Source: a virus (Duplodnaviria > Caudoviricetes). From it: a stretch of DNA of 64,000 bases. The notes below the pieces were generated by a model, which did no database searches, had not been told where the DNA came from, and saw only the letters and a list, made by a program, of their open reading frames with translations. The position numbers and the translations under genes are program-made. The stretch covers positions 1 to 64,000 of the IMG/VR virus record IMGVR_UViG_3300033066_001150; one strand, written 5' to 3'. This document shows positions 4,171-52,733 of this stretch, piece after piece (position 1 is the stretch's first letter; each line of letters starts with the position of its first letter).

Positions 4171-4546
4171 ACTCGACTCTTGCTCCGTTCTCACCGTCTT
4201 CGCTCACTTCAATCCACTGGACCTTATATCGGTCTTTTTGGAGCAACGCGCCAAGTCTAGATGCCAGTTGCTCACACGAATAAAGGAAGGACTGACCTGC
4301 GAACCTCTCGCAATGGAGACTGAGGTTTCTTTTCAGGATAAAGAATTCCACATCGCGATCGCCATGTGCCGCGACGACACTGACTTTGACATGAAAGACG
4401 TGCCGGTGCTCGTTGCGAAGGAAGGCTACTTCGTCAGGGGCGTCTATCCATTTATGAAACCCCACAAACGAATCAGTCACCCATACCGAGATTTTTGTAC
4501 CAGTATTCTGTTGCACGCTGTTCTCTCCGTGTAGAGGTCCTGCCAC
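4163..4546 (-). CDS. dpdL: QueD-like T-fold protein with LxxxHRHxF motif (DpdL-like)
   Basis: GFHKW...FLRNEHRHVF...DRDVEF...SCEQLA...VSEDGENGA. Confidence 0.65.
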   Translation of the reverse strand: MAGPLHGENSVQQNTGTKISVWVTDSFVGFHKWIDAPDEVAFLRNEHRHVFHVKVSVVAAHGDRDVEFFILKRNLSLHCERFAGQSFLYSCEQLASRLGALLQKDRYKVQWIEVSEDGENGARVEYV

Positions 4547-14055: not shown

Positions 14056-14197
14056 GGATTTCTTTTCTTGTGATAGAAATGGCTTCGGTACTGACAAACC
14101 CAAATTTCACACGGTTTCCTTGAATGGACAACACGCGGAGGGTTACACCGTTTCCAATATAGATTTCCTCGTTGGGACGTCTACTTAGTACAAGCAT
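13976..14197 (-). CDS. csrA: CsrA-like RNA-binding protein
   Basis: MLVLSRRPNEEIYIG...RVKFGF...ITRKEI. Confidence 0.75.
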   Translation of the reverse strand: MLVLSRRPNEEIYIGNGVTLRVLSIQGNRVKFGFVSTEAISITRKEIHDKAVPVPEARGQVDLEIWWAGTVSG

Positions 14198-30749: not shown

Positions 30750-31358
30750 ATGTCGAAACCTTTAGAGAATATGCGACATGAGCGGTTTTGTCAGGCTTAT
30801 GTGGTGTCGTTCAATGGAAAGAAAGCTGCGCTAGAAGCCGGGTATAAAGAGCATTCTGTCCAGGCGATGGCTAGTCAATTGCTTGCACGAAGGGATATTC
30901 GGAAACGACTCCGGGCATTACAAAAGGACTTCTTTCAGGCTAAGAAACTCGAACGCGAAGAAGTGATCCAGCAGCTCTACTATCTCTGCACACGGGATGT
31001 CCTGGATTTCGCAGATCATGATACTGGGGTCATTAACGTCGACGATCTTCGTCGACTTCCCAAAGGACTCCGGGCAAGTATCGACGGCCTTCGTGTACGT
31101 CAGCTCTATGATAAATCAGGAGAGGTCATCGGTCAGGAGATTACACTGAACCTCTCCCCCAAGGCCAAGGCTATCGAAATGGCCATGAAACATTTCAGCC
31201 TCTTCGCTCCAGAGGAAGTGGATCACAAGCATTCGGTGTCTGTGGACTGGGACCGGATGTTCGAATCACAAGCGGGAAAGGTTCCAGAGGTAGAGGAGAT
31301 GATACAGCAACTTCCTGAGAAAGGGACATTGCTGATTACGAAACAAGCCTCACCGTAA
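30750..31358 (+). CDS. terS: terminase small subunit
   Basis: RHERFCQAY...NGKKAALEAGY...ASQLL; directly upstream of the large subunit. Confidence 0.88.
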   Translation: MSKPLENMRHERFCQAYVVSFNGKKAALEAGYKEHSVQAMASQLLARRDIRKRLRALQKDFFQAKKLEREEVIQQLYYLCTRDVLDFADHDTGVINVDDLRRLPKGLRASIDGLRVRQLYDKSGEVIGQEITLNLSPKAKAIEMAMKHFSLFAPEEVDHKHSVSVDWDRMFESQAGKVPEVEEMIQQLPEKGTLLITKQASP

Positions 31359-31370
31359 AGACTGGAAATC

Positions 31371-36062: not shown

Positions 36063-39000
36063 ATGGCGAAGAAGAAACCTCGCCCACGTACTGCTTCCAC
36101 TCCTGTCAGTAATTTCCGTGAACAGTTGATGGACATGGCCCTCAATGCCCAGTCGACCCGCTGGGGGTATCTGCAGTCATTGATGGACCCACGTCGGGAT
36201 ATTGATCAGGAGTGTGGGTACGACGCCTCCCGGGAACACGACCCGCAGCTTTATCGGGAACTGTTTGACCGGAACCCTATCGCCTCCCGGGTCAATAAAC
36301 TGTTCCCGTCCGAGACGTGGGGACTTCCCCCTGAAATCTATGAATCGGAGGACCCCAAGGCCAAGACCCCATTTGAAGAGGCTTGGTTGGAACTGGGGGC
36401 CTCCTTGGGTGGGGAGAGCTGGCACGAGGACTTGACTTGTTCGTCTATTTGGGAAGTGCTCCGTCGGGCGGATATTCTTTCGGGGATTGGTCACTTTGGT
36501 GTGATCCTGCTGGGCCTCAGTGATACGGCTGATTTGTCTGAACCCGTAGAAGAGATTGACAAAGAGGGTAAGAGCGTATTCACCGCGAAGAAGAAAAGCG
36601 GGAATGTTCGAAACGCCAAGCAGCCACGCCGTCTGTTGTACATGCGGGTCTTCGACGAAACCCAAGCCACCATCCAGAGCCTCGAGACCGATCCCAGCAA
36701 CCCCCGCTACGGACAACCAACTCACTACAATATCAATTTCTATAATGTGAATAATCAGTCCGATGGGCAAATTGTGTCCTCTGTGGGGACCAAGGTTGTT
36801 CACTGGACCCGTATTATCCATGTCACGGATAACGTTCTTTCTAATGAACTGATGGGTGTGCCCCGGTGCAAGCCAGTGTTGCATCGACTGCTGGACCTGA
36901 ACAAGCTTTACAGCGGGTCCGCGGAGATGTACTGGAAAGGAGCCTTCCCCGGCTTGTCCATTGAAACACAGCCCCAGTTGCAAGGGGATGTGGAAATCGA
37001 TGCGGAAGCTATGCGCTCGCAGATGTTCGACTACATGAACAGTCTGCAACGCTATCTGACATTGACCGGGATGTCTGCCAAGACCTTGTCCCCCACGGTG
37101 GTCGACCCCACAACGCAGATCAATGTGCAGTTGGAAGCCATTTGTATTGAGTTGGGTGTACCGGTCCGAATTTTCAAGGGCAGTGAACGTGGGGAACTGG
37201 CTTCCAGTCAGGACGCTGCGGCTTGGTTGGACCGGGTTAAAGATCGCCAGCGGATGATTACAACGCCGCGGCTGGTGGTCCCCTTAGTCAACCGGCTGAT
37301 TCAAGTGGGGGTGTTGCCGGTTCCCAAGAAGTACGTGACTCATTGGCCGGATATGGCGTCTCTGAGTGAGGAAGAACAAGCCCGCGTCGGGACACTGATT
37401 GTTGACGTCATGGCGAAGTATATCCAAGGCGGCTTGGAAGTCATGATGACACCGATGGACTTTATGATGCGGCTGTTACACTTCTCACAGGAGGAGGCCG
37501 AGGGGATTTTGGAAGCCGCTATTGAAGCTGCGGACACACAGCAGCAACTCACAACCGACCCTGCCGCTGGACAAGACCCCGGACAAGGTGGGGCGCCGCC
37601 TTTGGGACCGGATGGACAACCCCTGCCCATCGGGCCGGATGGGAACCCTGTTGGACCTGATGGTAAGCCGGTGGAATTGGGACCGGATGGACAACCGCCC
37701 CAGCAAGTGGATGAGGACGGGAAACCTGTGGAACCCGTGGACGAAGAAGGGAACCCGGTGGCGGGACAACAACCCACCGGGTTCCCTGTCCCGGGTAAAA
37801 CACCCCCACACTTGGCAGCCTTTGCCAAACAAGCCGCACGTACAGGACGGCCCATTCCTCCGGGGCAAAAACAAGTGGCTCCGGGACAAGGGAAGCAGCC
37901 CATTCCCAAGAAGAAACCACAAGTCCGTAATAGACTGGCCGGGATTGTGGGACAGGCCGTGGACAAGGCCCGGCGCGTCTGGAATAACAAAGAGGTATAC
38001 CCCAAGATCAAGGCAATGGGTCTGTTTCTGCGTGAGACCGGACAAGCCATGCCCGGCTATGGTCAAATCTTCTATAAGACTGATGGTTCGGGTCAGTGTT
38101 GGTACGTGGGCGGGGATGGGGATGGGGACGGTTTCTACAAACTGGTTCAACGCAAACTGAAGACCATCCCCGGTGTCAAGTCTGTGACCTACGAAGCCGA
38201 AGTTTTCCCACCAAAGAATAATAAGTGGCATCAGGTCTACCCCCAGCAGAGGGCATGGGTGGGCAATGCCTTTTGTCCGACCGGTCCCGGTGGGGGACAG
38301 GACAATAGCTGTGCTCCTAAGGGAGGAACCGGACCCACAGATAGTCAACGAATCAGTGCCACAGTGCTAATCATGAAAACAAAGACAAGCACTATGGGAG
38401 AGAAAGGTACTATCCGCGAAGAAAAACGCCACACAGTCTCTATCAAAGATAAGGAAATTGGGACTATTGTTGAAAGACGGATCGCTAAGTCGGCGACTCA
38501 AGGTGGCGGTTACGAAAAGGTGATGGAAGCTGTTTATAAGGATGGGACTGTTCTGGGGCAGGTCAGCAGTCTTGTTCTAGGCAAGGAACGGTTGGCCCAG
38601 CACCGTTTGGAGAGAAGCAAGGCTAAGGCGGGGTCCACATCCAACGTCTTCTGTCCCACGGGACCGGGAGGTGGGGTGGACCCAACCTGTTCCCCCAAAG
38701 GTGGCGGCGGTGGAGGTGTCTCCGGCAAGGGGTCCGGTCGCATTTATAACCCGGACGTTGAGGAACGGGACTCGGCAGGGGTTACAAAGGCAGCCCGTGT
38801 GGGAGTGCCTGCCGAACACGTACCGCCTCCACCTCCCATCGGAAAGCTTCCCAATCTGACAGAACACGAACGCGAGGTCGAATCTAAGTTCGCAGAAGCC
38901 TACGAGGCGGACCCGGATGGGGTGGCTGATAAGTTCCGCGAGCTGGTCAAGGCTTCTGCCAAACCGGGTGAGCCGTTGACCTTTGGAACAGACGACGCCA

Positions 39001-39698
39001 AGGCCCTGACCGACGTGTGGTCCCACCCCGACCAAGACCAGCGTGCGGAGTACCGGGCCAGTCTCAACACTCCCTTACACCAGACAGCGAACGCGATCGC
39101 TAAGCGGGCCTTCGTGCGTGAGTTGGACAACCTGCAGGAAGGGGATGAGATTCTGGTGACCGTGGGTGGCTGTGGGGCTGGTAAAGGTTATGCCCTCAAG
39201 AATGTGCCCGAAGCCTTGGCAATGAAGCAGGGTTCCAAGATTATTTGGGACAGTGCCGGAGACCAGAATGCTACGGAGAACCCGTGGATTCAGAAGGAAG
39301 CGGAAGCTCGTGGACTGAAAGTCAACTATGTCTACGTGCATGCTGACCCTTATAAGGCATGGGCCGACCCGGAACGTGGGGCGATTCAACGGGCCAAAGA
39401 TCCCAAGGATGGGCGAATGGTGGACGCCAAGGTGTTCGCCGATAGTTATGCCTTGGGGATTAAAAACCACGCGGCGTTCTATGAAGCGAACAAAGACAAC
39501 CCCAGTGCTAAGTTTGCCTTCTTGGATAACCGGACGAAACCCAGCCTTATGGATATGATTCCGGACGAAGGGCTGCAGTTGGACCGCCACGAGTTGTCCA
39601 AGTTTGCCGTGAAAGCTGTGGAACAGGCACAAGCCCCGGATCGTGTGGTTCGTGGGGCCTTGATCGGGCAGCGTATCTGGGCAGGAGAAAACATCTAA
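36063..39698 (+). CDS. portal protein (DUF1073-like) with C-terminal cargo, including a zeta-toxin-like P-loop kinase
   Basis: Portal core (NPRYGQP, HWTRIIH, SAEMYW, IFKGSERGELASSQD); Pro/Gly linker; two tag copies; GGCGAGKG...YVHAD...RA...GRMV. Confidence 0.85.
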   Translation: MAKKKPRPRTASTPVSNFREQLMDMALNAQSTRWGYLQSLMDPRRDIDQECGYDASREHDPQLYRELFDRNPIASRVNKLFPSETWGLPPEIYESEDPKAKTPFEEAWLELGASLGGESWHEDLTCSSIWEVLRRADILSGIGHFGVILLGLSDTADLSEPVEEIDKEGKSVFTAKKKSGNVRNAKQPRRLLYMRVFDETQATIQSLETDPSNPRYGQPTHYNINFYNVNNQSDGQIVSSVGTKVVHWTRIIHVTDNVLSNELMGVPRCKPVLHRLLDLNKLYSGSAEMYWKGAFPGLSIETQPQLQGDVEIDAEAMRSQMFDYMNSLQRYLTLTGMSAKTLSPTVVDPTTQINVQLEAICIELGVPVRIFKGSERGELASSQDAAAWLDRVKDRQRMITTPRLVVPLVNRLIQVGVLPVPKKYVTHWPDMASLSEEEQARVGTLIVDVMAKYIQGGLEVMMTPMDFMMRLLHFSQEEAEGILEAAIEAADTQQQLTTDPAAGQDPGQGGAPPLGPDGQPLPIGPDGNPVGPDGKPVELGPDGQPPQQVDEDGKPVEPVDEEGNPVAGQQPTGFPVPGKTPPHLAAFAKQAARTGRPIPPGQKQVAPGQGKQPIPKKKPQVRNRLAGIVGQAVDKARRVWNNKEVYPKIKAMGLFLRETGQAMPGYGQIFYKTDGSGQCWYVGGDGDGDGFYKLVQRKLKTIPGVKSVTYEAEVFPPKNNKWHQVYPQQRAWVGNAFCPTGPGGGQDNSCAPKGGTGPTDSQRISATVLIMKTKTSTMGEKGTIREEKRHTVSIKDKEIGTIVERRIAKSATQGGGYEKVMEAVYKDGTVLGQVSSLVLGKERLAQHRLERSKAKAGSTSNVFCPTGPGGGVDPTCSPKGGGGGGVSGKGSGRIYNPDVEERDSAGVTKAARVGVPAEHVPPPPPIGKLPNLTEHEREVESKFAEAYEADPDGVADKFRELVKASAKPGEPLTFGTDDAKALTDVWSHPDQDQRAEYRASLNTPLHQTANAIAKRAFVRELDNLQEGDEILVTVGGCGAGKGYALKNVPEALAMKQGSKIIWDSAGDQNATENPWIQKEAEARGLKVNYVYVHADPYKAWADPERGAIQRAKDPKDGRMVDAKVFADSYALGIKNHAAFYEANKDNPSAKFAFLDNRTKPSLMDMIPDEGLQLDRHELSKFAVKAVEQAQAPDRVVRGALIGQRIWAGENI

Positions 39699-39859
39699 TG
39701 GCGATCACTGAGAACGCAGAAGGTCAATGGTGGGACGAAGAGGCTGACCGGGTGAACCGGATGGCGGAACTGGCCCGTCAAAAGGGAATGGTCATTTCGG
39801 TGACCCCCAAGGCAAAAGCAAAGGTCAGCAAAAAGAAACCCACCAAGAAGGAGAAATAA
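39698..39859 (+). CDS. 53-aa protein coupled to the portal-zeta gene
   Basis: TAATG overlap at both ends; MAITENAEGQWWDEEADR...; too short for the supplied ORF track. Confidence 0.55.
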   Translation: MAITENAEGQWWDEEADRVNRMAELARQKGMVISVTPKAKAKVSKKKPTKKEK

Positions 39860-40064
39860 TGCGGGACCTCCTCAAGCAAGAAACAACGTGCCTCAGTTCT
39901 GTTTGCAAAGAGTGTGGTCGACCGCTCCGGCACGGCGCCAAGGAACTGGATAAACATGGGACGTTGTGTGATGCTTGTTGGGCGGACCGTGAGATTCGGA
40001 TACAGGAACACCAACGCCGTATTCAGCGGGATATCAAACGTCTAGGGCTCCGGGGGAAACGGGA

Positions 40065-40379
40065 ATGTTAGACAGATTTACTACAGTCATCGAAAAGCCG
40101 TTTCCACTCGAGGCCCACGACCGATCAACCCCTTCGGTGGGGGAGTTCTGGGTCTTTGTGGAAGACGGGAACCCGGTGGCGGTGGAGTTCGTGTGTCCGT
40201 GTGGGTGCGGTCATAACCTCCACACACCGCTCGGACTGTCATCTCCGCATCACTGGGAATACCGGGCTGGGAGTGAGGGGCCGACTTTGTCCCCTTCTGT
40301 TCGTTGGACGAGTGGGTGTAAAGCGCATTTCACGGTGACCAATGGCAAGATTCATTGGTACTCTGATTCTGGGAAGTAG
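40065..40379 (+). CDS. DUF6527-like Zn-binding protein
   Basis: CPCGCG...PTLSPSV...CKAHFTVTNGKIHW. Confidence 0.7.
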   Translation: MLDRFTTVIEKPFPLEAHDRSTPSVGEFWVFVEDGNPVAVEFVCPCGCGHNLHTPLGLSSPHHWEYRAGSEGPTLSPSVRWTSGCKAHFTVTNGKIHWYSDSGK

Positions 40380-40381
40380 AC

Positions 40382-43300
40382 ATGCCACGGACCATTCCGC
40401 AACCTCGGGGCTTTTATAACCGCCGGCTCGGTCAGGGTCTCACACGTCGGGACCCCACCCGCACGGCGACCTTGCGGAAGATATTTTCTAATGAACTGCG
40501 ACGACGGATGAGTCGGTTGTTTGCGGATTCGTGGAAGCTGTTGGAAGATAATGGTCTGACAGAGAACGCCTTCTGTCCGACAGGTCCGGGCGGTGGAGTT
40601 GACCCAACCTGCAGTCCAGATCAAATTAGTATACAGCAGGCTTTCGATAGAATGCCATTCGGAGACAACCCCAAGGGGTACACATGGGCTTCGTTGTCTC
40701 TGACTACCTTGGACTCCCTGTTGAAGACAGGAAAGCTCGGATTGATCCATGATGTTGGGGAGTTGTCCGAGGACAGTGTATTATCTAAAGTGAATTCTAA
40801 GAAACTCAACCCTCTAATTGTTACGAAAATAGGGCAGCGGTTTCTTGTTGTGGATGGAAACCATTCTCTCGAGGCGGCCCGTCGTCTTCGGGTGGATTCT
40901 GTGAAAGCCATTGTTCCTAAGAAGTCCCTCTTGTCCTTGAACGCCTTCTGTCCCACTGGAAAGGGCGGTGGTCAAGACAATAGTTGTTCCCCTTCCAACA
41001 AAGGCATGTCTGCTCCGTTTGAAGCGGTGATGGGTCATTGGGACGCCATGCGCTCCAAAGACGCCTATAAAACAATGGGAAAGATCTGGAAATCGGACTA
41101 CGAGGGCACTCGTTGGTTCGACTACACACCAAAGCCGGGGACCAAGGCTTATAAAGAGTTGGATGCTTCGATTAAGTCCGGAGAACTTGTCCGGGAGTTT
41201 GAGGAGCGGTTCGCCTCGGAAGATAAGGAAGTGATGATGATTATCCATCCTTCCTCAGATGACATGTACAACCGAGAAACAGCAAAAGTCTCGGTCTACA
41301 CTTCTTCTAATCGTAACGAAGTCACTCCACATGACCAACCCTTGTCTGGTCGCATTCTGACTCATAATCATCCAGATGGGGCTAACCTATCCTTGTCTGA
41401 TGTAAAAACTGCGGTCCGGAAAGGAGTCCAGGAAATTAGGGCGGTTACTCCAGACGGGACCGTGTACAGCCTCAAAAAGGCAGAAAGCTACTATAAAAAA
41501 CCAGATGGGACACAACACAAGGCGGTTCGTGGACCGGGACAAGATGCTATTGATAAGCGATTAGGGGAGGCTATTCGAAAGCATGTAACTCTCGAAGAAG
41601 CTCAACTCCCCTTAGGCCAACAGCAAGCCATCTATGAAAAAGTCTGGAAGGCGTTTACAAAGGAACCGTTCGTATCAGAGTCCGCTGAAGGGGGCCAACA
41701 CTACACAAGGTACGAGTACACTGTGTCCCGTCGGACGGAGAACGTCTTCTGCCCGACTGGACCGGGCGGAGGTGTGGACCCCACATGCTCTCCTTCCAAT
41801 AAAGGGACAGCGAATGTACCGCAAACTCCGGAAGAGTGGGAAGAGCATTTCCAACATATCAATTTTCTAGGAACGAAGCGAGTTGTAGAGGACCGTGCAA
41901 AAGAGTGGAAGTATCACGCCCCGGTAAACGTGGAAAACGCCGTTGGTCGAAACTTTGAACGGGGTGGGGTCCAGTGGGAGGAAGGCGGAAATTGCCAACT
42001 GGAAACCGGAGTGGTGACTATTTACTCCCGGTCCGTTGGTAGTTCCGTGGAAAATGTGGAACGGATTACAAACCATGAACTGATGCATGGTACGTTCGAA
42101 AAGGTCTATGATAAGTACCGACGAGAACTGGGGAAGATTACCATAGATCACATTCATATGGATGGGACGCTGAAAGCGGAACATTTCAACGAATTCCCCA
42201 CGTATGGTCGAATTCAGGCTCTGTTGGAAAATCATGGCCAGTTCTCTTTAGGCAAGGCCCTACAAAAAGAGGACGGGATTACGGACTATAGCCGGGCTTA
42301 CTGGAAGGATTACGAAGAAGGAAAAGTCAGTTACCATATAGCGGTTCATGAGACCTTGGCGGAAATCGCAGCTATTCATGGAACAACTGGTGTTATCCAA
42401 GGGGAAAAGGTGTGGCGGGATCTCTACAAAGGCATTCGGGACGAGTATCGGGTTCTCCAAGGTCATCAGTCCCGTCGACGTGGTCCCGGTATCCCTAAGC
42501 CGGTCAAGAACTACTCCACGGAAACCGTTTATTTGGATGGGGATTTTCGGCGTGTCCCCCCAGAGCAAGCTGTTTTCATTCATTGGTGGGATGACGCTGG
42601 TTCCCACTGGGGGACTCGGAAGCCCCCGACAAACAATTTCGCCTCTACGCAATTCAATGTCGACGAAGTGGGGGTGCTGACCGCGGTCCATGTTATTCAG
42701 TCCCATCTGGATTCCCGGGATGTGTTAGAACTGGAAACCCAGCCACATATCACGGTTCGGTATGGTCTCCATGATCAGGAAGCTTCGGGTGTGCGGGCGT
42801 TGTACGACAACCAAGTCCCGGTCCGGGTCAAACTGGGTGGCTTGTCCTTGTTCCAGACACCGAAGGCGGATGTGCTAAAAATTGACGTGGATTCCCGTAG
42901 TCTTCCGGCCATTCACGGGCGATTGGGCCTGCTTCCCCACACGAGCACCTTTCCCACGTATATTCCCCATTTGACAGTCGCCTATCTGCGACCGGGCACA
43001 GGTCATAAATACGTGGGGAAAAGCGGTCTGGAAGGGACCGTGTTGACTTTTGATAAGTTGGTGTTCTCGGATGACAACCGTCGGCAGACTACCGTGTCCA
43101 ACGCTTTCTGTCCGACAGGACCGGGGGGTGGACAGGACAATTCCTGTCCACCTAATAGACAGGCGGAAAGTAGCAGCCTTGTCGTTCCAGTACGGTACAC
43201 AGGAAAGAAGGGAACGCCTGTAGAGGTAGTCCACAACCCCACTGAAAAAACACTGAAACGATTAGTGAAAAAGGAAAGGCTCAAGGGGTTGTTGGACCTC

Positions 43301-44815
43301 AAAAACGGTACATGGCATTTCTGGTCAGAGGAAGATGGGGAGCATGAAGATGTAGCCAGAGGAATGGGACTTTCCTCCGGTAATGTGTTCCGTGATGGGA
43401 TAGAGTATGTTCGCCTCTATGCTATAAAGGACCCTCTTAGTCTGGAGGCTCGGATAGCCACGGCTTCCCATGTGGACACACCACTGCCGCGAACACCGTT
43501 TCGGGTACACAACGCCTTCTGTCCGACAGGACCGGGAGGAGGTGTTGATCCGACTTGTAGTCCAAAGGGTGGTTCTAGTCCTGTGACGAAAGCGATCAGG
43601 GAATATGGACCAGTTTTGGCCGAGAGTCGTCAGGGTGGGTACACACTTCGAGTACACGACGAAAATCCAAAGTCGGAGGGACAACCAGCCCATATAAGTG
43701 ATGAGGAAAAACCTTTTTCTGGTGCTGGTCGTATGACCATCGAGTCCCCAGATGGAGAACTTGTAATCGCTGGGAAGTGGATGGATTGGGCGGAAGTACA
43801 TTACCCATCCGACTACACAAAACTCCCGAAAAAAGACAGAGCTGCTCTAGAAGCACAAGAGCAGCTAAAATACGATTTACAGAAGAATTTCCATTTTCAT
43901 AAGGAACGGGGTGGTCTAGTCGCCAACACCTACGACCCTGTCCGTTATCGAGTCTCCAAGTTCGTAAAAGAGTTCACCGCCCGTGTCAAGTCCACGGTCA
44001 AGGATAAACCGTGGTGGGTTGGCTTTATCAATTCTGGATATCAGACGGGTGTGGGTCGAGCATATGACGATCTGAACAAACCAGCTCTGATGACACCAGA
44101 AGAACGCAAAGCTTATCAGGCCGAACGACGGTCCTTCGTTCGGGGCGTTGTAAAGGCGTCCGGTCCGACTGCTCAGAAGTTGTATGCCTCTGTGGAAGAG
44201 GATATTGACCGGATTACAAGTCAGTTGGGAGACAAGCTGCGGGTACAATTGAAACAGGCCCTTGCCGAGGGGTTGTCCTTACGCAAAGTTGCTAAGGGGA
44301 TTCTTGCCAAGGTGGAGGAGGAAGGGTTGCGACGGGCCACAAACGTCGCGAACTATCGCACAGTGGAGGCCCATAACGAGGGTCAGTTAGCGGCCTTTGA
44401 AGACTTGGGTGTGACGGATATCGGTGTGTTGGTAGAATGGACCGTGGCTGGGAACCCGTGCCCACTGTGCAAGCCGATGGCCGGTGTGGTGCTTCGGCCC
44501 AAGGACGCTCATGGATTGATACCCAGACACGTCCATTGTCAGTGCTGTTTCGAGGTCGTGGGAAGTGGGTTCGGGGCTGATAAGGAGGACCTGATTGTAG
44601 ACCGATCGGGGATTCGTAAGGCTATCAAGAAATCCATTTCCCGGGAACGTAAGCAGGGCACGTGGAAAGACAAGTTGGAAGCCACACAATGGAAAGGCCG
44701 GTCGGTGCGGGTGGAAGGGCGGCCCTTGTTCAATGAGGAAGCCTCCCCAGCACTTCGGGCTTTCAGTCAATTCGTGACTTCGCACAAAGCCGCACAGGTC
44801 GAGGAAACACCATGA
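40382..44815 (+). CDS. MuF/SPP1-gp7 head morphogenesis protein with inserted multi-domain cargo
   Basis: N-terminal DPTRT helix; C-terminal VEW...CPLC...IPRHVHCQC; internal ParB-N, JAB, HExxH and 2H domains; five tags. Confidence 0.85.
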   Translation: MPRTIPQPRGFYNRRLGQGLTRRDPTRTATLRKIFSNELRRRMSRLFADSWKLLEDNGLTENAFCPTGPGGGVDPTCSPDQISIQQAFDRMPFGDNPKGYTWASLSLTTLDSLLKTGKLGLIHDVGELSEDSVLSKVNSKKLNPLIVTKIGQRFLVVDGNHSLEAARRLRVDSVKAIVPKKSLLSLNAFCPTGKGGGQDNSCSPSNKGMSAPFEAVMGHWDAMRSKDAYKTMGKIWKSDYEGTRWFDYTPKPGTKAYKELDASIKSGELVREFEERFASEDKEVMMIIHPSSDDMYNRETAKVSVYTSSNRNEVTPHDQPLSGRILTHNHPDGANLSLSDVKTAVRKGVQEIRAVTPDGTVYSLKKAESYYKKPDGTQHKAVRGPGQDAIDKRLGEAIRKHVTLEEAQLPLGQQQAIYEKVWKAFTKEPFVSESAEGGQHYTRYEYTVSRRTENVFCPTGPGGGVDPTCSPSNKGTANVPQTPEEWEEHFQHINFLGTKRVVEDRAKEWKYHAPVNVENAVGRNFERGGVQWEEGGNCQLETGVVTIYSRSVGSSVENVERITNHELMHGTFEKVYDKYRRELGKITIDHIHMDGTLKAEHFNEFPTYGRIQALLENHGQFSLGKALQKEDGITDYSRAYWKDYEEGKVSYHIAVHETLAEIAAIHGTTGVIQGEKVWRDLYKGIRDEYRVLQGHQSRRRGPGIPKPVKNYSTETVYLDGDFRRVPPEQAVFIHWWDDAGSHWGTRKPPTNNFASTQFNVDEVGVLTAVHVIQSHLDSRDVLELETQPHITVRYGLHDQEASGVRALYDNQVPVRVKLGGLSLFQTPKADVLKIDVDSRSLPAIHGRLGLLPHTSTFPTYIPHLTVAYLRPGTGHKYVGKSGLEGTVLTFDKLVFSDDNRRQTTVSNAFCPTGPGGGQDNSCPPNRQAESSSLVVPVRYTGKKGTPVEVVHNPTEKTLKRLVKKERLKGLLDLKNGTWHFWSEEDGEHEDVARGMGLSSGNVFRDGIEYVRLYAIKDPLSLEARIATASHVDTPLPRTPFRVHNAFCPTGPGGGVDPTCSPKGGSSPVTKAIREYGPVLAESRQGGYTLRVHDENPKSEGQPAHISDEEKPFSGAGRMTIESPDGELVIAGKWMDWAEVHYPSDYTKLPKKDRAALEAQEQLKYDLQKNFHFHKERGGLVANTYDPVRYRVSKFVKEFTARVKSTVKDKPWWVGFINSGYQTGVGRAYDDLNKPALMTPEERKAYQAERRSFVRGVVKASGPTAQKLYASVEEDIDRITSQLGDKLRVQLKQALAEGLSLRKVAKGILAKVEEEGLRRATNVANYRTVEAHNEGQLAAFEDLGVTDIGVLVEWTVAGNPCPLCKPMAGVVLRPKDAHGLIPRHVHCQCCFEVVGSGFGADKEDLIVDRSGIRKAIKKSISRERKQGTWKDKLEATQWKGRSVRVEGRPLFNEEASPALRAFSQFVTSHKAAQVEETP

Positions 44816-46218
44816 ACTCAGATATGACTGACGAAGAATACAATCTGGCACTTCTCCGGAAGTTCAGTCGGGTCTCCACACGAAACGCCTTCTGTCCTAC
44901 TGGTCCGGGCGGGGGACAGGACAATTCGTGTTCGCCGAAAGGGGATTCTGCCTATCAGGAAATGGGGAAACGGGCTGCTTTTCTACAACTTGAGACCAAT
45001 GACAAAAAACTCAAGGACGCCTATCTGGGCAGCCAATCGGCTTCTTACGTGTCGGGTCTTGCGGATAAAACCAATGAAATGGAAGACAAGAAGCGATGGA
45101 GGGCTTTGCATACAGACGCCGAAACCAGTCACAAAGCGGCATTACGTGCCTTGAAGAAGCTGGACGGAGACAAAGACCTAATCCAATACCATAAGGAAGC
45201 GTCCCAGCATCATAGCAATGTCTTAGGCGGTGCGGGGGCCCTTCGTCACTCTACTTACGTCCGTTCGGATATTGGGAAAAAGCGCCGGGGCGGATCGACA
45301 CGGAATGCTTTCTGTCCGACTGGTCCGGGTGGGGGAGTAGACCCAACATGTAGCCCCTCCTCCACCACCAAAGGCGGCGAGGACCTTTACAGCGCAACCC
45401 TCGGGAAGGACAAGGTGTGGCGTGTGGGGAAATTACCGGTCCCAGACCACATTCGCAAGCTGGCTATTCCCCCAGCATGGACCAATGTGGAAATCAACCC
45501 CAACCCCAACGGGACAGTCCTAGCTAAGGGGTTGGATTCCAAGGGCCGGGTCCAGACACGATATAGTGATACACATACGGCCCGTCAGTCGGCTGCCAAG
45601 TTTGGTCGGACCCGGGAACTGCTCAAAAAGCGCGAACAGATTTTCAAGGAACTGGATAAGGACGCCAAGGACCCCACACTCAAAGAGCATGCGGAGTGTC
45701 TGAAAGTCATTATGCAGACAGGAATGCGTCCCGGAAGTGATAAGGACACCAAAGCCGAACACGAGTCCTTCGGGGCCACGACTTTGCTGGGTCGCCATGT
45801 AATTCCCCAAGCGGACGGCAGTGTGGTTCTCCGGCTGGCAACCGGCAAGAACAAAGGCCGGGAGGTCGACTTTCCCATTCAGGACAAGGCCACGGCCGCT
45901 ATGCTGCGGGCGCGGGCTAAGGAAACTGGCAAGTCGGGTCGTTTGTTTGGAACAACGGCAGCCCAGTTGCGGAATTATAGTAAGACGAAAGACGGAGGTG
46001 GCTTCAAGACGAAGGACCATCGTACGGCGCTGGGCACGGAGACCGCACTGCGGGCTATCAAAGGGATTAGTAAACCTAGCACCGAGTCCGAATATAAGTC
46101 CCGAGTGAAGGAAGTGGCGACTCGTGTTGCTGCGGTTTTAGGGAACACGCCTCCAATCGCCCTCAAGTCCTACATCGACCCGCAGGTCTTTACTGCTTGG
46201 AACAAGGGATTGAAATGA
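44812..46218 (+). CDS. tagged polyprotein with C-terminal type IB topoisomerase
   Basis: IPPAW, DSKGRVQTRY, GMRPGS, FGATTL, KDHRT, LGNTPPIALKSYIDP; two tags. Confidence 0.88.
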   Translation: MNSDMTDEEYNLALLRKFSRVSTRNAFCPTGPGGGQDNSCSPKGDSAYQEMGKRAAFLQLETNDKKLKDAYLGSQSASYVSGLADKTNEMEDKKRWRALHTDAETSHKAALRALKKLDGDKDLIQYHKEASQHHSNVLGGAGALRHSTYVRSDIGKKRRGGSTRNAFCPTGPGGGVDPTCSPSSTTKGGEDLYSATLGKDKVWRVGKLPVPDHIRKLAIPPAWTNVEINPNPNGTVLAKGLDSKGRVQTRYSDTHTARQSAAKFGRTRELLKKREQIFKELDKDAKDPTLKEHAECLKVIMQTGMRPGSDKDTKAEHESFGATTLLGRHVIPQADGSVVLRLATGKNKGREVDFPIQDKATAAMLRARAKETGKSGRLFGTTAAQLRNYSKTKDGGGFKTKDHRTALGTETALRAIKGISKPSTESEYKSRVKEVATRVAAVLGNTPPIALKSYIDPQVFTAWNKGLK

Positions 46219-46385
46219 CAAACCCTCTTTATGATACAGACGCAGATGCTAAGTGGGATGTCAATCCAGCTGATTGGAGAAATCTTCCGGATAGCGATCT
46301 CACGGACGATGACCAAGACGTCCCCACCCCCAAGCATGTCAAGGATGTGCTGGGCTTCGACCCCGACGAAGAGGATTGGGAATAA
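46215..46385 (+). CDS. small very acidic protein coupled to the topoisomerase gene
   Basis: ATGA overlap; DWR...DDDQD..TP..V..VLGFDP. Confidence 0.65.
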   Translation: MTNPLYDTDADAKWDVNPADWRNLPDSDLTDDDQDVPTPKHVKDVLGFDPDEEDWE

Positions 46386-46387
46386 AT

Positions 46388-46660
46388 ATGACAGATGCCT
46401 TGTCTAGTTTGACAAGTTCACGGGACTTGACGTTCACTCAACATCGTATGGTCGAACTCCTCCGGGACGAGAGACCCCACACACGGTTTGAACTGCGCCA
46501 GTGTCTGCGAGATGATCAGGGCACATTGGAAACAATGCGTGTGCACGTATCCCTGCTTCGGAAGAAACTGGTCCCGCAAGGGTACACGATTCGCAGTGAA
46601 AAGCTGGCGGGCGAGTGCTACTATCGCCTTGTCGCTATCACTCATTTGGGGTCGGAATAA
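46388..46660 (+). CDS. OmpR/PhoB-type winged-helix protein
   Basis: LTFTQHRMVELL...TMRVHVSLLRKKL...YYRL. Confidence 0.7.
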   Translation: MTDALSSLTSSRDLTFTQHRMVELLRDERPHTRFELRQCLRDDQGTLETMRVHVSLLRKKLVPQGYTIRSEKLAGECYYRLVAITHLGSE

Positions 46661-46732
46661 CTGGTTTATCCGCTGGTAAAAAAAATTTAACTCTGTAGAG
46701 TGTTCCGGACTCTGTCGTTACTCTCGACAGCC

Positions 46733-49700
46733 ATGGAACACTATACCTTCAACTTCACGGGTCGGGCGCGGCGTGAGAAGCTTCACGGTCGTGAGTTTCT
46801 TGTTGTTCCCCTGACAATGATCGTCCCCGGTGTCCTCAACGGAAGCCAAGGGGCGTTATTCTATCCCCCCAGCGAAATTAAGCGGAATTCGCAGGCGTGG
46901 AATGGTATCCCGTTGACGGTGGGTCACCCCACACGTAACGGCCAGCAACTCAGTGGTCGGGACCCCTCGGTGTTGAACGAGACCGGTGTGGGGTTTGTGT
47001 TCCATGTCCGTTCCGAAAGCGGTAAGCTGAAAGGCGAAGGTTGGTTTGACGTTGAGGCGGTTCGGAAAGTTGATAATCGAATCTACGACGCCATTATCAA
47101 TGGCCGTAAGATGGAACTGAGTACGGGCCTCTTCACGGACAATCACCCGGCGACCCCCGGTTCCAGTTACAATGGGCGTCCGTACACCCATGTCGCCCGG
47201 AACTATCGTCCGGATCACTTGGCTATTCTTCCTGATCAGGTTGGAGCATGTTCCGTGGAAGATGGGTGTGGGGTCAATGTCAACATAGCAGCTGATCAAG
47301 AAGAGTGTTCCTGTGGCGGTCAGTGTGATGAATGCAAGGCCGGTTTGGAAGAAAACCAAGCTGAGGGGTGCACCTGTGACACGTCAGGCCCCGAGGGGTG
47401 TCCGGTTCACGGCGACACCGAGAAGGTTACCAACTCCAAGCAAGTGATCTGGAACGAGATTGGCAAGGTGTTGGGGATTCTTGAAGCAGTAGAAAATGGA
47501 ATTGTCCAACCACACTCCAAGAATACGGGACGATTCAAATCACCTAGTGCGGGCACGGGAAAAGGGCCTGTCCACGAAGCCGCTCAACGAGGTGCTTTGG
47601 CACTAGACCCAGATGATCATGCTAAGGGCGCCTCCGCCAAAGCCGAAGCAGATGTTGGGACCAACCCAGCTAGCTGGGTGGAGGATGAGGATATTTGGGA
47701 TCGAGCTAAGAAGGCAGCGGATGCTGGGGAGTACGACGCCGACACTTATTGGGCTGTCGTGTCCCATATCTATAAACGGATGGGCGGCAAGTCCAAGTCG
47801 GAAGGGACTACCGACAACGCAGACGACGACTGCCAGTGGGTGACCGCTAGTGGGACCCCTATCTGTATCAAGGGCGGGGAAGTCAAGAAGGGCCCTTCTG
47901 CTCTCAAAAAAGCAGCCGCCAGTGACGGCAAGAAAAGTTCCCACTTCAAAACCAAGGACCGGGACGAAGTCGCCCAGAAAGAAGGTTTCCGCAAACATAG
48001 TGACAAACAGAAGGCACAGGACAAGGCGTTGGGGAAAGCCAACAAAGACGCCATGGATAAGGACCTTGGAGATCTGAAAAAAGAGCTCTTTGGCAAACAG
48101 GGGAAGGCTCAGGCTGCCGGGGAAGTCCACAAGAGGGACCCCATGTTGACCGTTAAGGGCGCCGCCAAAGTGATTGGCAAGCATCTCAAGTCGGGTCTGT
48201 CTAAGGCCGGCGCTCTTGCGGATATGATTGGAACAAAACTGCTGGGCAAGGACGACTTCGAAGCGATCAAAAACATCCCAGATGATGTGAAATCCCGGTT
48301 CCGGAACTTGTTCAAGAAGGGCAAGTTCACGTCCAATGGGGTTGTAGCAATTCATCCAGTCACATTGGAGTGCCTCGTGGAAATGGGTCTTGTCTACAAC
48401 GCTCGTGTGAACAACGCTTTCTGTCCAACCGGTCCCGGTGGCGGTCAGGACAATTCCTGTTCCCGGTACGGTGACGGTGGTTCCTCTAAAGAAAAGGCCG
48501 TGGCCAAAGCTTTAAGCAACTTCAAGATCAAAGAGAACGGGGAATGGTCTTCTGTTAAGGTGGGGTCCCGTGCTTACAAGATTAGAAAAGTCGGTTCCGG
48601 TTACGAAGCTGTCAGTCCTCTTAAAACAAGGACAATTGGGAAAACCGCAGAATCCGCGTTGACCTCTGTTATAGATGTTCGTGACATCCCAAAGGGAACC
48701 GCCACGGACATCGGGGCCAAAGGCCAACAATTCAATAACCCCAAATCCGATGAGGACGCCCAGTTCTTTAAGTCCCGGGCAAGTGCTGAGGCATTTGTGA
48801 AGGAAGCGACGGACAGGGGGTATGATGTAGACTATTCCCACAAGGGAGGCACGTCCCAAGTCCGCATTCAAGGTGTGACAGACGACAACAAGAAAGAAAT
48901 CCGGGCCCTTGGTGATAAGCACGGTCGTGAGAAATCGATCTGGGAACAACCTGTCCCTCCACCACGTGGGACCGCCGCGAAGGACTTGGAAAAGTCCGCG
49001 GTTAGTAAACGCCAACTCGCCAAGGAGTTGAAGGCGGAACGCGCAGCACGGGAAGCCGCCGCAAAGGCCCCTCGAAAAGATGAGGAGGTGTTTGCACGGT
49101 GGAAAGCCAAACAGAAGAAAACGAACAACGCCTTCTGTCCTACTGGTCCTGGTGGGGGTCAAGATAACTCGTGTTCGTCCAAAGGTGGAGGTGGAGGTGT
49201 TAAGGTAGGGGACAAGGATGCGAAAGGCCGCACAGTAATTTCCGACGAGGTCGCATCCATGGGGGCGTCTCTAGCAGACAAACTCAACACTGCGGGTCGC
49301 AAAAGCGATGCGGCCGTAGAGGTATACTCCAATGCTAAGTATCATCGGCTGAAGAGAGAGCAGAAGAAAGCACCTGAGCTCGAAAAGAAAATGAAGGAAG
49401 TCACAAAGCAGTATTATAAGGCCCGCGACGAAGCAGAGGCTTTTGAAAAGAAACATGGCTTGTCTGTTGTCGACGCATGGGAGGCGGATCGCGGTCGAGG
49501 TTGGCCTAGCTACAAGGTGGACACAAGAACTGACACACGTCCTAAGTTCGTACGGCAGTCAGATTCTGAGCCACACAAAACTGAAAATTCGTCGGTGGGG
49601 AATCGCTCCCACTCCGCACGACGCCCACGGTTGGGAGCGAATGTTGTAGGAGTTCGAGATATGAAGCGGGGACAGGTCATCGACGCCCTCGTGAGCAACT

Positions 49701-50353
49701 GTGATTGCTTTGACGAGGAAGATCGGGACACGTTGAACAGCCTCGAAGACGGCAAGCTGGTCCGACTCTATCAGAGTCTGATTGGCAACGCCACTTATGA
49801 GGACGAAGAAGAGGAAGCGCCGGCCGACGACGAAGAGATCATGGAAGACGACGAAGAGATGGAAGATCCGGCTCCGAAGAAGAAGCCCGGTGGATTCTTT
49901 CAGAAGAAGGCCATCGCCAATCGCCGAAATTCGTCGGATGCCATTGCGGCATCCATTCTTCGCAGTCGACGCAAACCCATGTCGGCGGATGAGTGGTTTG
50001 GTACCGCTCCTCCGGAAATCAAGTCGGCTGTCCAGAACGCCATGAAGCTGGAAGCGGAAACGAAGCGGGGCCTGCTGGACCGTCTTACGGCCAACGTCGC
50101 CGACGACAAGGTCCAGTCGGTGCTCAATTCCCTCAAGGACAAGTCCATCGAAGAACTCGAAGGACTGCTGTCCCTGTTGCCGCCGCCGCGGGCCATCAAC
50201 GCCCCCAGCTTTATTGGGGCCGCGGTGCCGTTCCCGGGTCGCACCACGAACGAACAAGCCATCAGCAATGATGACGATGATGTTCTGCCACTGCCCACCA
50301 TCAACTACGCCGATGAGTTCGGGACTCGGCGCAAGACTGCCACGGTTTCGTAG
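46733..50353 (+). CDS. DUF2213-type prohead protease / scaffold with inserted cargo
   Basis: GIPLTVGHP, ELSTG, YNGRPY, DHLAILPDQVGACS; acidic coiled C-terminus; two tags; directly upstream of the capsid genes. Confidence 0.85.
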   Translation: MEHYTFNFTGRARREKLHGREFLVVPLTMIVPGVLNGSQGALFYPPSEIKRNSQAWNGIPLTVGHPTRNGQQLSGRDPSVLNETGVGFVFHVRSESGKLKGEGWFDVEAVRKVDNRIYDAIINGRKMELSTGLFTDNHPATPGSSYNGRPYTHVARNYRPDHLAILPDQVGACSVEDGCGVNVNIAADQEECSCGGQCDECKAGLEENQAEGCTCDTSGPEGCPVHGDTEKVTNSKQVIWNEIGKVLGILEAVENGIVQPHSKNTGRFKSPSAGTGKGPVHEAAQRGALALDPDDHAKGASAKAEADVGTNPASWVEDEDIWDRAKKAADAGEYDADTYWAVVSHIYKRMGGKSKSEGTTDNADDDCQWVTASGTPICIKGGEVKKGPSALKKAAASDGKKSSHFKTKDRDEVAQKEGFRKHSDKQKAQDKALGKANKDAMDKDLGDLKKELFGKQGKAQAAGEVHKRDPMLTVKGAAKVIGKHLKSGLSKAGALADMIGTKLLGKDDFEAIKNIPDDVKSRFRNLFKKGKFTSNGVVAIHPVTLECLVEMGLVYNARVNNAFCPTGPGGGQDNSCSRYGDGGSSKEKAVAKALSNFKIKENGEWSSVKVGSRAYKIRKVGSGYEAVSPLKTRTIGKTAESALTSVIDVRDIPKGTATDIGAKGQQFNNPKSDEDAQFFKSRASAEAFVKEATDRGYDVDYSHKGGTSQVRIQGVTDDNKKEIRALGDKHGREKSIWEQPVPPPRGTAAKDLEKSAVSKRQLAKELKAERAAREAAAKAPRKDEEVFARWKAKQKKTNNAFCPTGPGGGQDNSCSSKGGGGGVKVGDKDAKGRTVISDEVASMGASLADKLNTAGRKSDAAVEVYSNAKYHRLKREQKKAPELEKKMKEVTKQYYKARDEAEAFEKKHGLSVVDAWEADRGRGWPSYKVDTRTDTRPKFVRQSDSEPHKTENSSVGNRSHSARRPRLGANVVGVRDMKRGQVIDALVSNCDCFDEEDRDTLNSLEDGKLVRLYQSLIGNATYEDEEEEAPADDEEIMEDDEEMEDPAPKKKPGGFFQKKAIANRRNSSDAIAASILRSRRKPMSADEWFGTAPPEIKSAVQNAMKLEAETKRGLLDRLTANVADDKVQSVLNSLKDKSIEELEGLLSLLPPPRAINAPSFIGAAVPFPGRTTNEQAISNDDDDVLPLPTINYADEFGTRRKTATVS

Positions 50354-51009: not shown

Positions 51010-52170
51010 ATGTTCGTGGATTACGTGCTCAATGGTCAGGGACATGGTCCCGTGGCCGAGCAGCTGATGGGGACTCACTTCGATCCCGGTCTTCTCCGAC
51101 CGTATATCGACAGTCGTGGTCGCAAGGTTGTGATGGTCCACACGGGCCAGTTCGCCACCAACAAAGACACGGGTCGTCAAGAACCCATCTACAAGAAGCG
51201 CCTCGTGAGCGAGCTTGTGGCGGGTGGGATGTACTCCCCGGTCTTCAACGCCACGTCCCTGCGGAAGCAGGAGTGGGTGCAGCTGGATTCGGTGGTGCTC
51301 AAGGCCGCCCGTGCCCGGTTGCGAGCGTGGGGGGATTTGGCCGCGTCGAACACTTATAGCGGTTTCAACGGCATGAGCCGGACCGTGCTCGAACACGAGC
51401 AGATGAGTGATCCCGGCGAGGCGATGGTCGATATGGATGGCCTGACCGAAGGCCGTTCGGACCGTCCCCGGTTCGATCTGCAGGGTCTCCCCCTGCCGAT
51501 CACTCACAGTGACTTCTGGTTCAGTTCGCGGCAACTGGCGGTCTCCCGGAATACGGGAACCCCGCTGGACGCCACGATGGCCGAAGCCGCTGGACGCCGC
51601 GTTGCCGAAATGATTGAGAAGACGACCATCGGCACCATCACGGGGATGCGGACGAGCAAGGTGGGCAGCCTGCTGTCCGCCGCACCGCAGGTCTACGGGT
51701 ATACGAACTACCCGCAGCGCATTACCAAGAACGACCTCACTGTTCCAACCGGTTCCAATGCCGGTTCGACGGTGGCTGACGTTTTGGAAATGCGGGATAT
51801 GTTGTACGACGTCAACCGCTTTGGCCCGTTCATGCTGTACCACAGCAAGGACTGGGACCAGTTCATGGACAACGACTACGTCCTGACCGGTGGCAACGTT
51901 GCAACTCAGACCCTGCGCGAGCGCCTTCGGGCCATTGAAGGGATTCAGGATGTCCGTCGCTTGGACTTCCTGACCGATACCTTCACCCTGTTGATGGTCC
52001 AGATGACCCCGGATGTGGCCCGTGCCGTGATCGGGATGGACCTGACGACGGTGCAGTGGGAATCGCAAGGCGGTATGCGCTTGAACTTCAAGGTCATGTG
52101 CATCCACGTGCCCCAACTGCGCAGCGACTTCAACGGTTCGTGCGGGATTCTCCACGCCACCACGGCGTAG
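51010..52170 (+). CDS. major capsid protein (HK97 fold, encapsulin/linocin-like)
   Basis: NATSLRKQEWVQLD, PLPITHSDF, YGYTNYP, GPFMLY, PQLRSD. Confidence 0.88.
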   Translation: MFVDYVLNGQGHGPVAEQLMGTHFDPGLLRPYIDSRGRKVVMVHTGQFATNKDTGRQEPIYKKRLVSELVAGGMYSPVFNATSLRKQEWVQLDSVVLKAARARLRAWGDLAASNTYSGFNGMSRTVLEHEQMSDPGEAMVDMDGLTEGRSDRPRFDLQGLPLPITHSDFWFSSRQLAVSRNTGTPLDATMAEAAGRRVAEMIEKTTIGTITGMRTSKVGSLLSAAPQVYGYTNYPQRITKNDLTVPTGSNAGSTVADVLEMRDMLYDVNRFGPFMLYHSKDWDQFMDNDYVLTGGNVATQTLRERLRAIEGIQDVRRLDFLTDTFTLLMVQMTPDVARAVIGMDLTTVQWESQGGMRLNFKVMCIHVPQLRSDFNGSCGILHATTA

Positions 52171-52253: not shown

Positions 52254-52733
52254 ATGGTCAAGACACAGAAGCCCCCCAAACAAAAGATGCGTTTCCGATT
52301 GCTGCAAGGCCTGCACACCACGGGGCGTCAACAAGACACCACGAAGATGACGGTTCTCCAGCAGCAGTTGGACGAGGGCATGATCACACAAGCCCAGTTC
52401 GACGAACAGACCAAGGACCTCCAACCCCGGCGTATTTTCCACGCCGGTGAAATTGTGGAAAGTCGGACGGACCTGCTTCGCCTCAACGGTCCCCATCCGA
52501 TGGTCCCCAAGTTCGCACGGGCGGACGAGGACGTGGCCTCGATGGTCCCACAACCGTATCAGTCCCCGGAAACCCGACCGGCCCCGGTGGATGTGGACGA
52601 CACGTTGACTGGGATGACGTTGGAGCAACTGAAGAAGATGGCCCGAGCCGAAGCCATTGATATCAAGGGCCTGACGACTGTGGAAGAGATCGCCGACCGG
52701 ATTCGACAGTCCATGGAAGAACTGGACGCCTAA
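52254..52733 (+). CDS. post-capsid protein with Rho-N-like tail
   Basis: LTGMTLEQLKKMA...IDIKG. Confidence 0.55.
   Translation: MVKTQKPPKQKMRFRLLQGLHTTGRQQDTTKMTVLQQQLDEGMITQAQFDEQTKDLQPRRIFHAGEIVESRTDLLRLNGPHPMVPKFARADEDVASMVPQPYQSPETRPAPVDVDDTLTGMTLEQLKKMARAEAIDIKGLTTVEEIADRIRQSMEELDA

Follow-up and report, generated by a model that had tools for sequence, protein, structure and literature searches.

The DNA described here, referred to as the window, comprises positions 1 to 64,000 of IMG/VR record IMGVR_UViG_3300033066_001150, the first 64 kb of the 97,978-bp genome of an uncultured tailed phage. Its head module runs from the small and large terminase genes (30750-32933) through the portal, MuF, a topoisomerase IB open reading frame (ORF), a 94-aa ORF, a protease/scaffold ORF and a 181-aa protein to the major capsid protein. 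Four of these genes contain repeated copies of a 16-residue peptide with two cysteines, hereafter the tag. A six-frame regular expression scan of the window for N[AV]FCPTG.GGG.D..C returned exactly 11 matches, all on the + strand: two in the portal, five in MuF, two in the topoisomerase IB ORF and two in the protease/scaffold ORF, with none in any other ORF. A relaxed core pattern revealed no further copies in the entire 97,978-bp genome. Six tags belong to a QDNS subtype and five to a VDPT subtype, and each is followed by a linker rich in Ser, Pro, Gly and Lys. The scan confirms the 11 copies and four carriers that an earlier note on this DNA had listed.

The portal gene (36063-39698, +; likely start ATG 36063, with the frame open from TTG 35964) encodes a PF06381 core and a C-terminal extension of two cargo segments delimited by tag 1 (QDNS, 38265-38312) and tag 2 (VDPT, 38643-38690). 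The last of these segments (38691-39695) has a weak P-loop/zeta-toxin-like match. The MuF polyvalent protein (1477 aa; 40382-44815, +) is composed of an N-terminal 62-aa MuF segment, four cargo segments and the MuF core (~43967-44683), separated by tag 3 (VDPT, 40565-40612), tag 4 (QDNS, with Lys at the variable loop position, 40940-40987), tag 5 (VDPT, 41741-41788), tag 6 (QDNS, 43100-43147) and, ahead of the core segment, tag 7 (VDPT, 43511-43558). The protein matches PF04233 (weakly) and has PHROG head-morphogenesis matches. Its N-terminal segment resembles the N-termini of relatives' MuF proteins, and the cargo array therefore splits MuF. Cargo segment 4 includes a 2H phosphoesterase/Acb1-like domain (42734-42997, +; PF13563, E 6.6e-6; PF23474, E 0.0019), which is tag-flanked in relatives too. 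The stop codon of MuF overlaps the start of the stand-alone topoisomerase IB cargo ORF (44812-46218, +) in the sequence ATGA. This ORF consists of a 25-aa leader, tag 8 (QDNS, 44884-44931), a 140-aa helical segment, tag 9 (VDPT, 45304-45351) and a TopoIB domain (~45448-46155; PF01028/PF21338). In the protease/scaffold ORF (46700-50353, +), a DUF2213 head-maturation protease domain (46733-47284) ending in V-N-V-N, a predicted self-release site (47273-47284), precedes the scaffold part (47285-50353). The latter holds two tag-delimited inserts, with tags 10 (QDNS, 48413-48460) and 11 (QDNS, 49127-49174), and a C-terminal part (~49565-50350) homologous to the scaffolds of relatives. The major capsid protein (51010-52170, +), which has no tag, marks the downstream limit of the tagged module.

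The 15 inter-tag segments show no mutual similarity by BLASTP, supporting the earlier observation that tags sit at the borders of unrelated segments. With six dissimilar segments, among them the 2H/Acb1-like domain and the MuF core, the MuF ORF is a polyvalent protein in the sense of a single polypeptide carrying several unrelated domains; the portal, topoisomerase and protease/scaffold ORFs have three segments each. Recognisable among the 15 are the portal core, the P-loop/zeta-like segment, the 2H/Acb1-like phosphoesterase, the MuF core, TopoIB, DUF2213 and the scaffold C-part, and the family matches agree with the carrier identities given previously.

The 48-nt tag sequences have a mean pairwise nucleotide identity of 74%, the longest exact in-register run shared between copies being 23 nt. 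The fraction of identical codons is 0.47, compared with 0.37 expected from codon usage. As synonymous positions are nearly randomised between copies, the sequences argue that selection acts on the peptide and not on the DNA, in line with the earlier note. The near-alternation of QDNS and VDPT tags, also pointed out there, is present in the window but does not extend to relatives, where successive pairs are VV 34, QV 8, VQ 5 and QQ 4 (V, VDPT type; Q, QDNS type); it is a local accident and not a feature of the system. The idea that QDNS and VDPT tags pair up, by alternating or by forming clasps within the molecule, was rejected, since relatives have mostly VDPx-VDPx.

The tag does not correspond to a described family, as had been suspected. 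Searches against Pfam (E up to 10) and NCBIfam returned nothing, PHROGs gave carrier-protein matches only, a profile search of the PDB gave one chance match at E = 1, and literature string searches for the motif found nothing relevant. A zinc knuckle or zinc ribbon, with four Cys/His ligands in two knuckles of a single element, was rejected: the tag has two Cys, no conserved His and no Pfam or PDB profile match. Modelled with AlphaFold2 (AF2), the tag forms an ordered coil that lacks regular secondary structure (predicted local distance difference test, pLDDT, 78-85).

The earlier note had proposed a pattern and profile search for the tag. We found 54 stretches with 122 distinct tags in IMG/VR using a degenerate DNA pattern, and a profile search of 1.84 billion representatives of protein clusters from public metagenomes identified 1,497 proteins with the tag (E up to 0.001), some of them with as many as 10 copies. 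Tags are thus widespread, and they lie in head genes between effector domains. Loci in IMG/VR whose tag is of the Asn type belong to a single lineage, sharing the portal (mostly 40-50% identity), MuF, protease domain (41-62%) and capsid protein. Gene-by-gene mapping of 12 head modules that bear tags placed every tag in the genes from portal to protease/scaffold, and none in capsid, decoration or tail genes. Tagged carriers are long, with a median of 1191 aa versus 617 for untagged MuF proteins and 1134 aa versus 586 for portals, and PF04233 is present in most tag carriers. A search for prophages among 185,579 species genomes, made with a DNA pattern for the Asn type of tag, gave a single true match, on a 20-kb contig of a metagenome-assembled genome.

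The cargo is effector-like, as the earlier note had it. Grouping the 121 non-redundant tag-delimited segments by similarity gave 72 groups, and the Pfam tally of the segments is that of the polyvalent-protein repertoire: ART-PolyVal 11, 2H 7, Acb1 6, ADPrib_exo_Tox 4, Peptidase_C39_2 3 and InPase 2, with further matches to sigma-70, zeta toxin, TopoIB, NUDIX, HNH, RelA/SpoT and GNAT. The sigma-70 segment (regions 2 and 4) lies in the MuF cargo of L003/P0084, which suggests that the virion delivers a sigma factor and that this relative, at least, infects bacteria.

Tags are present in 16 of the 78 closest DUF2213 protease relatives (retrieved by two patterns, one of them GACSxxDGCG) and missing from 62, and the protease tree, which is weakly resolved, shows phages with and without tags intermingled. 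Because most DUF2213 phages lack the tag and the tag is also found with other protease families, these sequences mark it as a mobile junction module and not a feature of the DUF2213 protease lineage. An alternative is that the tag is a joint at the DNA level, a short homology used to swap cargo cassettes, with the peptide a by-product. Cargo has clearly been shuffled at tags between carriers and phages, and both the interspersion on the tree and the slight shared-codon excess would fit. We nevertheless regard a recombination joint as very improbable: synonymous positions are largely randomised within the genome, and the peptide is nearly invariant in 607 instances from phages with portals that are 40-50% identical or of different families, which points to protein-level selection.

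The AF2 model of the DUF2213 domain (pLDDT 86) has T4 gp21 as its best PDB match in Foldseek (5JBL; probability 1.00, TMt 0.64), followed by the proteases of Kaposi's sarcoma-associated herpesvirus, Epstein-Barr virus, herpes simplex virus and human cytomegalovirus (KSHV, EBV, HSV and HCMV). On this model the domain has the T4 gp21/herpes assemblin protease fold. H76 and S141 (the latter in ELSTGL) are invariant across 19 relatives and are the putative catalytic His and Ser; D172-H173 is likewise invariant. The gene order portal, MuF, protease/scaffold, small protein, major capsid protein is the same in the window and its relatives, and fits the placement of a gp21-type protease. An invariant GACSxxDGCG ends the protease domain in 19/19 aligned relatives (window 47243-47272, aa 182-191). 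A literature search on DUF2213 found no biochemistry.

An Asn follows the protease domain within a few residues in nearly all 19 aligned relatives, mostly as [VLI]-x-N (for example VLVN or VNVN), and three of the few columns that are at least 80% conserved in the otherwise variable scaffold C-part are Asn. The motif [TVLI]-x-N occurs 29 times in the protease/scaffold ORF against 10.7 expected (z 6.6); in this genome, enrichment is seen in this ORF and, mildly, in the portal. Across 73 protease/scaffold proteins of the lineage, tagged or not, we counted 1340 occurrences against 611 expected (~2.2-fold). The ratio is at background, ~1.0-1.2, in major capsid proteins, decoration proteins and tag-less MuF proteins, and the window's capsid protein is not enriched. 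Numbering residues from the putative cut, with the Asn as P1, scaffold Asn sites favour V (3.4x), T (3.3x) and also I at P3, and W (2.3x) and F (2.1x) at P2'. The tag flanks follow the same pattern, with T, V, L, I or A at P3 and F at P2'. The T4 prohead protease cuts at L/I-x-E, and an aliphatic P3 with a fixed P1 is the rule in related proteases. The protease of phage SPN3US cuts after A-x-E (PMC10052503). By analogy, the [TVLI]-x-N code fits this rule.

Cys is enriched ~3-fold at P1' and P3' of Asn sites, and most scaffolds have a conserved [LV]-x-N↓C-x-C(W) site (VSN↓CDC at ~49800 in the window; ↓ marks the predicted cut). A zinc clasp between the tag and either the protease GACSxxDGCG or the scaffold N↓CxC was considered and rejected as a specific partnership: 62 of the 78 relatives, for which GACSxxDGCG was one of the two retrieval patterns, have no tags, the CxC is missing from some tag-positive scaffolds, and the loop also occurs with Peptidase_S78 (S78) proteases.

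The residue at P1 of the tag is uniform within proteins. In 177 database proteins with 607 tags, P1 is only N in 153, only K in 7, only R in 6 and only L in 2; another eight combine residues, either N/H (plus one S) or L/F/A/T. When P1 residues were shuffled, 27 proteins with non-N tags were expected where 8 were seen, and 0 of 20,000 shuffles matched this. Locus L138 has eight K-tags spread over four different ORFs, and synonymous differences are seen among the codons for K, R and L. The head modules of these phages are of other kinds: in L138 and L141 the portal belongs to PF04860 and the capsid protein to PF05065, and the protease is of Peptidase_S78 type (weak Pfam and PHROG protease matches). 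In L142 an S78 protease (E 2.9e-30) adjoins the Arg-tagged protein, and the Leu-type loci have a Mu-type portal. HK97 gp4, a Peptidase_S78 enzyme, cuts at K103/S104 (PMC10275583). As far as the sequences tell, P1 is uniform within a protein and switches from N to K or R together with Peptidase_S78 wherever the protease could be identified. The uniformity and the switch imply a genome-specific reader of P1 that tracks the protease family.

A tag that cleaves itself, by Asn cyclisation or an N-S acyl shift at Cys, would need no protease. Asparagine-lyase chemistry is known from the nodavirus coat protein (an Asn-Ala site), the NPTH motif of FlhB/YscU and intein C-termini, and the invariant Asn followed by Ala or Val in this lineage is reminiscent of the nodavirus site, with a Cys three residues on. 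The replacement of Asn by Lys, Arg or Leu in whole genomes (7 all-K, 6 all-R and 2 all-L proteins) with an unchanged loop is incompatible with Asn-lyase chemistry. Furthermore, [TV]-x-N is abundant in scaffolds that lack the Cys loop, and the unrelated upstream sequences offer no conserved fold to strain the F-C bond. We therefore consider self-cleavage extremely improbable.

Cargo that is fused in one phage can be separate in another, with the break precisely at a tag. The window topoisomerase ORF is a homologue of residues 783-1252 of the MuF polyprotein P0026, where it is fused; TopoIB is a separate leader-plus-tag ORF in the window, P0058 and P0059, and is fused into MuF in P0022, P0026 and P0100. 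The last cargo of the portal is carried on MuF in P0040 and P0075, as C-terminal cargo of 64-67% identity. The MuF C-terminus and the topoisomerase leader (44780-44890) both resemble one continuous P0026 junction segment, as if it had been duplicated at the gene split. Where the first tag lies near an N-terminus, in these ORFs and in database proteins, it is always preceded by a leader, mostly of 11-40 aa and of 3 aa in P0037; in P0034 the start is called 7 residues ahead of a Leu-type tag and may be miscalled. The leaders are unrelated, basic or acidic, and end in the P-side residues. A capsid targeting sequence of the T4 type, a conserved leader that is removed, was rejected: the leaders are unrelated and the conserved part lies after the predicted cut.

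These observations bear on the possibility that the tag is an uncleaved structural joint, a hinge stapled by metal or disulfide that insulates domains in proteins which remain intact both within the virion and once ejected. With its two Cys, Gly-rich loop and invariant Asp, the tag does look like a folded or metal-binding mini-element, in keeping with the pLDDT of 78-85, and passages in Iyer et al. 2017 (PMC5512222) describe some polyvalent proteins as transferred full-length. A joint leaves four things unexplained: the upstream residue is invariant per genome yet switches between N, K, R and L with the protease family, the flanks agree with the [TV]-x-N↓x-[FW] code enriched in scaffolds, a leader is always kept before N-terminal tags, and one and the same cargo can be either fused or split precisely at the tag. 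On balance, an uncleaved joint appears unlikely.

We favour a reading in which the tag is cut after its Asn by the resident head protease, and place its probability at roughly 0.7. Four independent lines, drawn from sequence and structure models, point to such cleavage: the protease fold, the site code, the covariation of P1, and fusion and fission at tags. They lend indirect support to the earlier proposal that the DUF2213 protease cuts after the invariant Asn. The tag would have two parts. The first, [T/V/L/I]-x-N, would be the cleavage site of the DUF2213 head-maturation protease (putative Ser/His, gp21/assemblin fold), which would sever the bond from Asn to Ala/Val after the proteins have entered the prohead. 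The second, the [A/V]-F-C-P-T-G-x-G-G-G-x-D-x-x-C loop with its Ser/Pro/Gly linker, would be kept on each released N-terminus. Portal, MuF and protease/scaffold would act as carriers that bring strings of effector domains into the prohead, including the 2H/Acb1-like phosphoesterase, a P-loop kinase-like domain and unassigned domains; topoisomerase IB is encoded separately, in an ORF that has two tags and a short leader. The protease would then separate ~15 pieces, presumably delivered with the DNA; we infer cleavage, packaging and ejection. Release of many pieces is thus retained from the earlier note, whose figure of about a dozen gives way to a predicted ~15 plus scaffold fragments.

Several points weigh against cleavage at the tag. 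The Asn specificity assigned to the protease derives from sequence statistics. The closest cultured phage by protease type, Brevundimonas phage vB_BpoS-MaInes (L137, ON529866.1; 41% identity), has GACSxxDGCG with no Asn after it, and its portal and protease/scaffold are short and stand-alone, as in tag-less relatives. [TVLI]-x-N is not enriched in its protease/scaffold, portal, capsid, decoration or terminase proteins. Since MaInes has GACSxxDGCG without the Asn code, the code is, judging from these sequences, younger than the DUF2213 protease family. None of the cultured relatives, of which the closest have 34% (portal) or 41% (protease) identity, has tags. The S78 assignments of L138 and L141 lie at or below the Pfam cut-off, and the link of P1 to the protease family covers the N-, K- and R-type loci. 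Uniform P1 could in principle reflect concerted evolution of tag copies, which is argued against by the synonymous codon scatter and by the location of tags in separate ORFs. Finally, a nearly invariant 15-residue P'-side element far exceeds what a protease site needs, and its main function may be other than cutting.

Because more than one protease family and more than one portal family occur alongside the loop, it is not the partner of one particular protease, and among the genes tested no accessory gene co-occurs with the tags. The loop could be an address for loading or ejection, could present the P' side of junctions to assemblin-fold proteases, or could form an N-terminal cap closed by metal or disulfide. 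As a portable, carrier-independent address across portal, capsid and protease families, the NH2-x-F-C...C terminus freed by the protease would close through a metal or disulfide, like an N-terminal hook activated by cleavage, and govern retention in the head, threading through the tail, or both; we offer this tentatively, as a possibility. If true, any protein given a protease site and the loop would be loaded and delivered. Cleavage could also proceed as proposed with the loop serving only to present the P' side of the substrate to assemblin-fold prohead proteases, and having no role after the cut. In favour of this, the loop accompanies two or more protease families that belong to a single structural superfamily, an aromatic P2' is likewise preferred at this lineage's scaffold sites, and the lack of a co-occurring accessory gene among those tested fits as well. 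Most cleavage-type scaffold sites nevertheless lack the loop, the junctions of relatives use other post-Asn motifs (NPEGCNQYTGPGC, AW[ST]DEAR), and two invariant Cys have no obvious use in substrate binding, so a role confined to presentation seems rather doubtful.

Two alternative modules follow the Asn in relatives. The first, N↓[AS]NPEG[CHI]NQ[YH]TGPGC, shares two Cys and a TGP with the tag and gave 17 distinct matches, one of them likely due to chance, in portal, MuF and protease/scaffold ORFs (L004/L108 MuF, L047, L054, L093, L120, L074 and L083); none occur in the window's genome, and a literature string search for it found nothing. The other, N↓[AVT]W[ST][DE]EAR[EQ]AA, lies directly after Asn in relatives' protease/scaffold ORFs (L037, L038, L006, L019/L042 and L012), continues into His/Ala-rich helical stretches and is repeated two to three times per scaffold. 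As relatives use these other motifs, the Asn is the common junction element, with several modules behind it.

Outside the tagged module, the early/replication region of the window encodes a GTP cyclohydrolase I (PF01227, E 6e-73; 4546-5457, -), which may point to a 7-deazaguanine-type DNA modification pathway. The window also encodes a DnaB-like helicase (8220-9614, -) and an SNF2-family helicase (12676-14103, -). An endonuclease VII-like ORF (52254-52733, +) directly follows the capsid gene. A tRNA scan of the window found no tRNA genes.

If cleavage at the tag holds, it would provide a sequence rule, usable on genome data by itself, for head-loaded proteins and their cut points in ~1,500 uncultured phage protein clusters, and P1 Asn would be a new specificity for the uncharacterised DUF2213 branch of assemblin-fold proteases. 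One junction module re-fitted to different proteases through its P-side residues would amount to a natural experiment in protease-substrate co-evolution, and the tag could serve as a compact handle for loading foreign proteins into capsids. The dismantling of polyvalent proteins would become a directly testable question.

The internal proteins of T4 (IPI-III, Alt) have a short capsid signal beside a gp21 site, L/I-x-E. As in the system described here, a signal adjoins a prohead-protease site with an aliphatic P3 and a fixed P1, read by a protease of the same predicted fold. In T4 the conserved signal is an N-terminal leader that is cut off; in the present system it is not the leaders that are conserved but the P'-side loop, which would stay on the product. 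T4 has Glu at P1 where the tag has Asn, and the signal is N-terminal in T4 but internal here, with up to 10 copies per protein. The role of propeptides in head proteins is summarised in PMC10052503. In giant phages (SPN3US gp245, phiKZ and 201phi2-1), cuts at A-x-E are made in the portal, in the protease and in numerous other proteins of the head and of ejection, and the protease sheds its own C-terminal propeptide (PMC10052503). This self-removal parallels the predicted V-x-N self-release site. The giant-phage sites are three-residue motifs that mostly serve to remove N-terminal propeptides; they lack a conserved Cys loop, and a single module does not link strings of unrelated enzymes there. 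HK97 gp4 is a precedent for Lys at P1, matching the Lys or Arg before x-F-C in S78 tag-bearing phages; its substrate is the scaffolding domain of the capsid protein, and a cargo tag is not known there.

Pre-toxin motifs, such as VENN of CdiA, and the MuF-toxin fusions of temperate phages are reportedly the subject of work by Zhang et al. in 2012 and Jamet et al. in 2017. Polymorphic-toxin junctions likewise place a short conserved motif between a constant carrier and variable C-terminal modules, with MuF as a carrier. The tag has no sequence similarity to pre-toxin motifs and no Pfam pre-toxin match, and differs in being internal, repeated and linked to a capsid protease code.

A close likeness is to the polyvalent proteins of Iyer, Burroughs, Anand, de Souza and Aravind 2017 (PMC5512222), for which the relevant passages predict packaging in the head and proteolytic release of separate domains. 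These too are giant multidomain proteins on MuF or other virion domains, with ART-PolyVal, 2H phosphoesterase, InPase, NUDIX and peptidases among their domains. Their processing is ascribed in those passages mainly to in-built zincin-like metallopeptidases, while here a 16-residue junction matches the resident prohead serine protease. The passages on cleavage and processing contain no junction peptide, and a term search of the source found no mention of cysteine. By analogy, the system is a member of the polyvalent-protein class and would work in the way in which head cargo is processed by protease in T4 and giant phages; what its sequences appear to add to these systems is a defined, repeated and retained Cys-loop junction together with a predicted Asn-specific DUF2213 protease.

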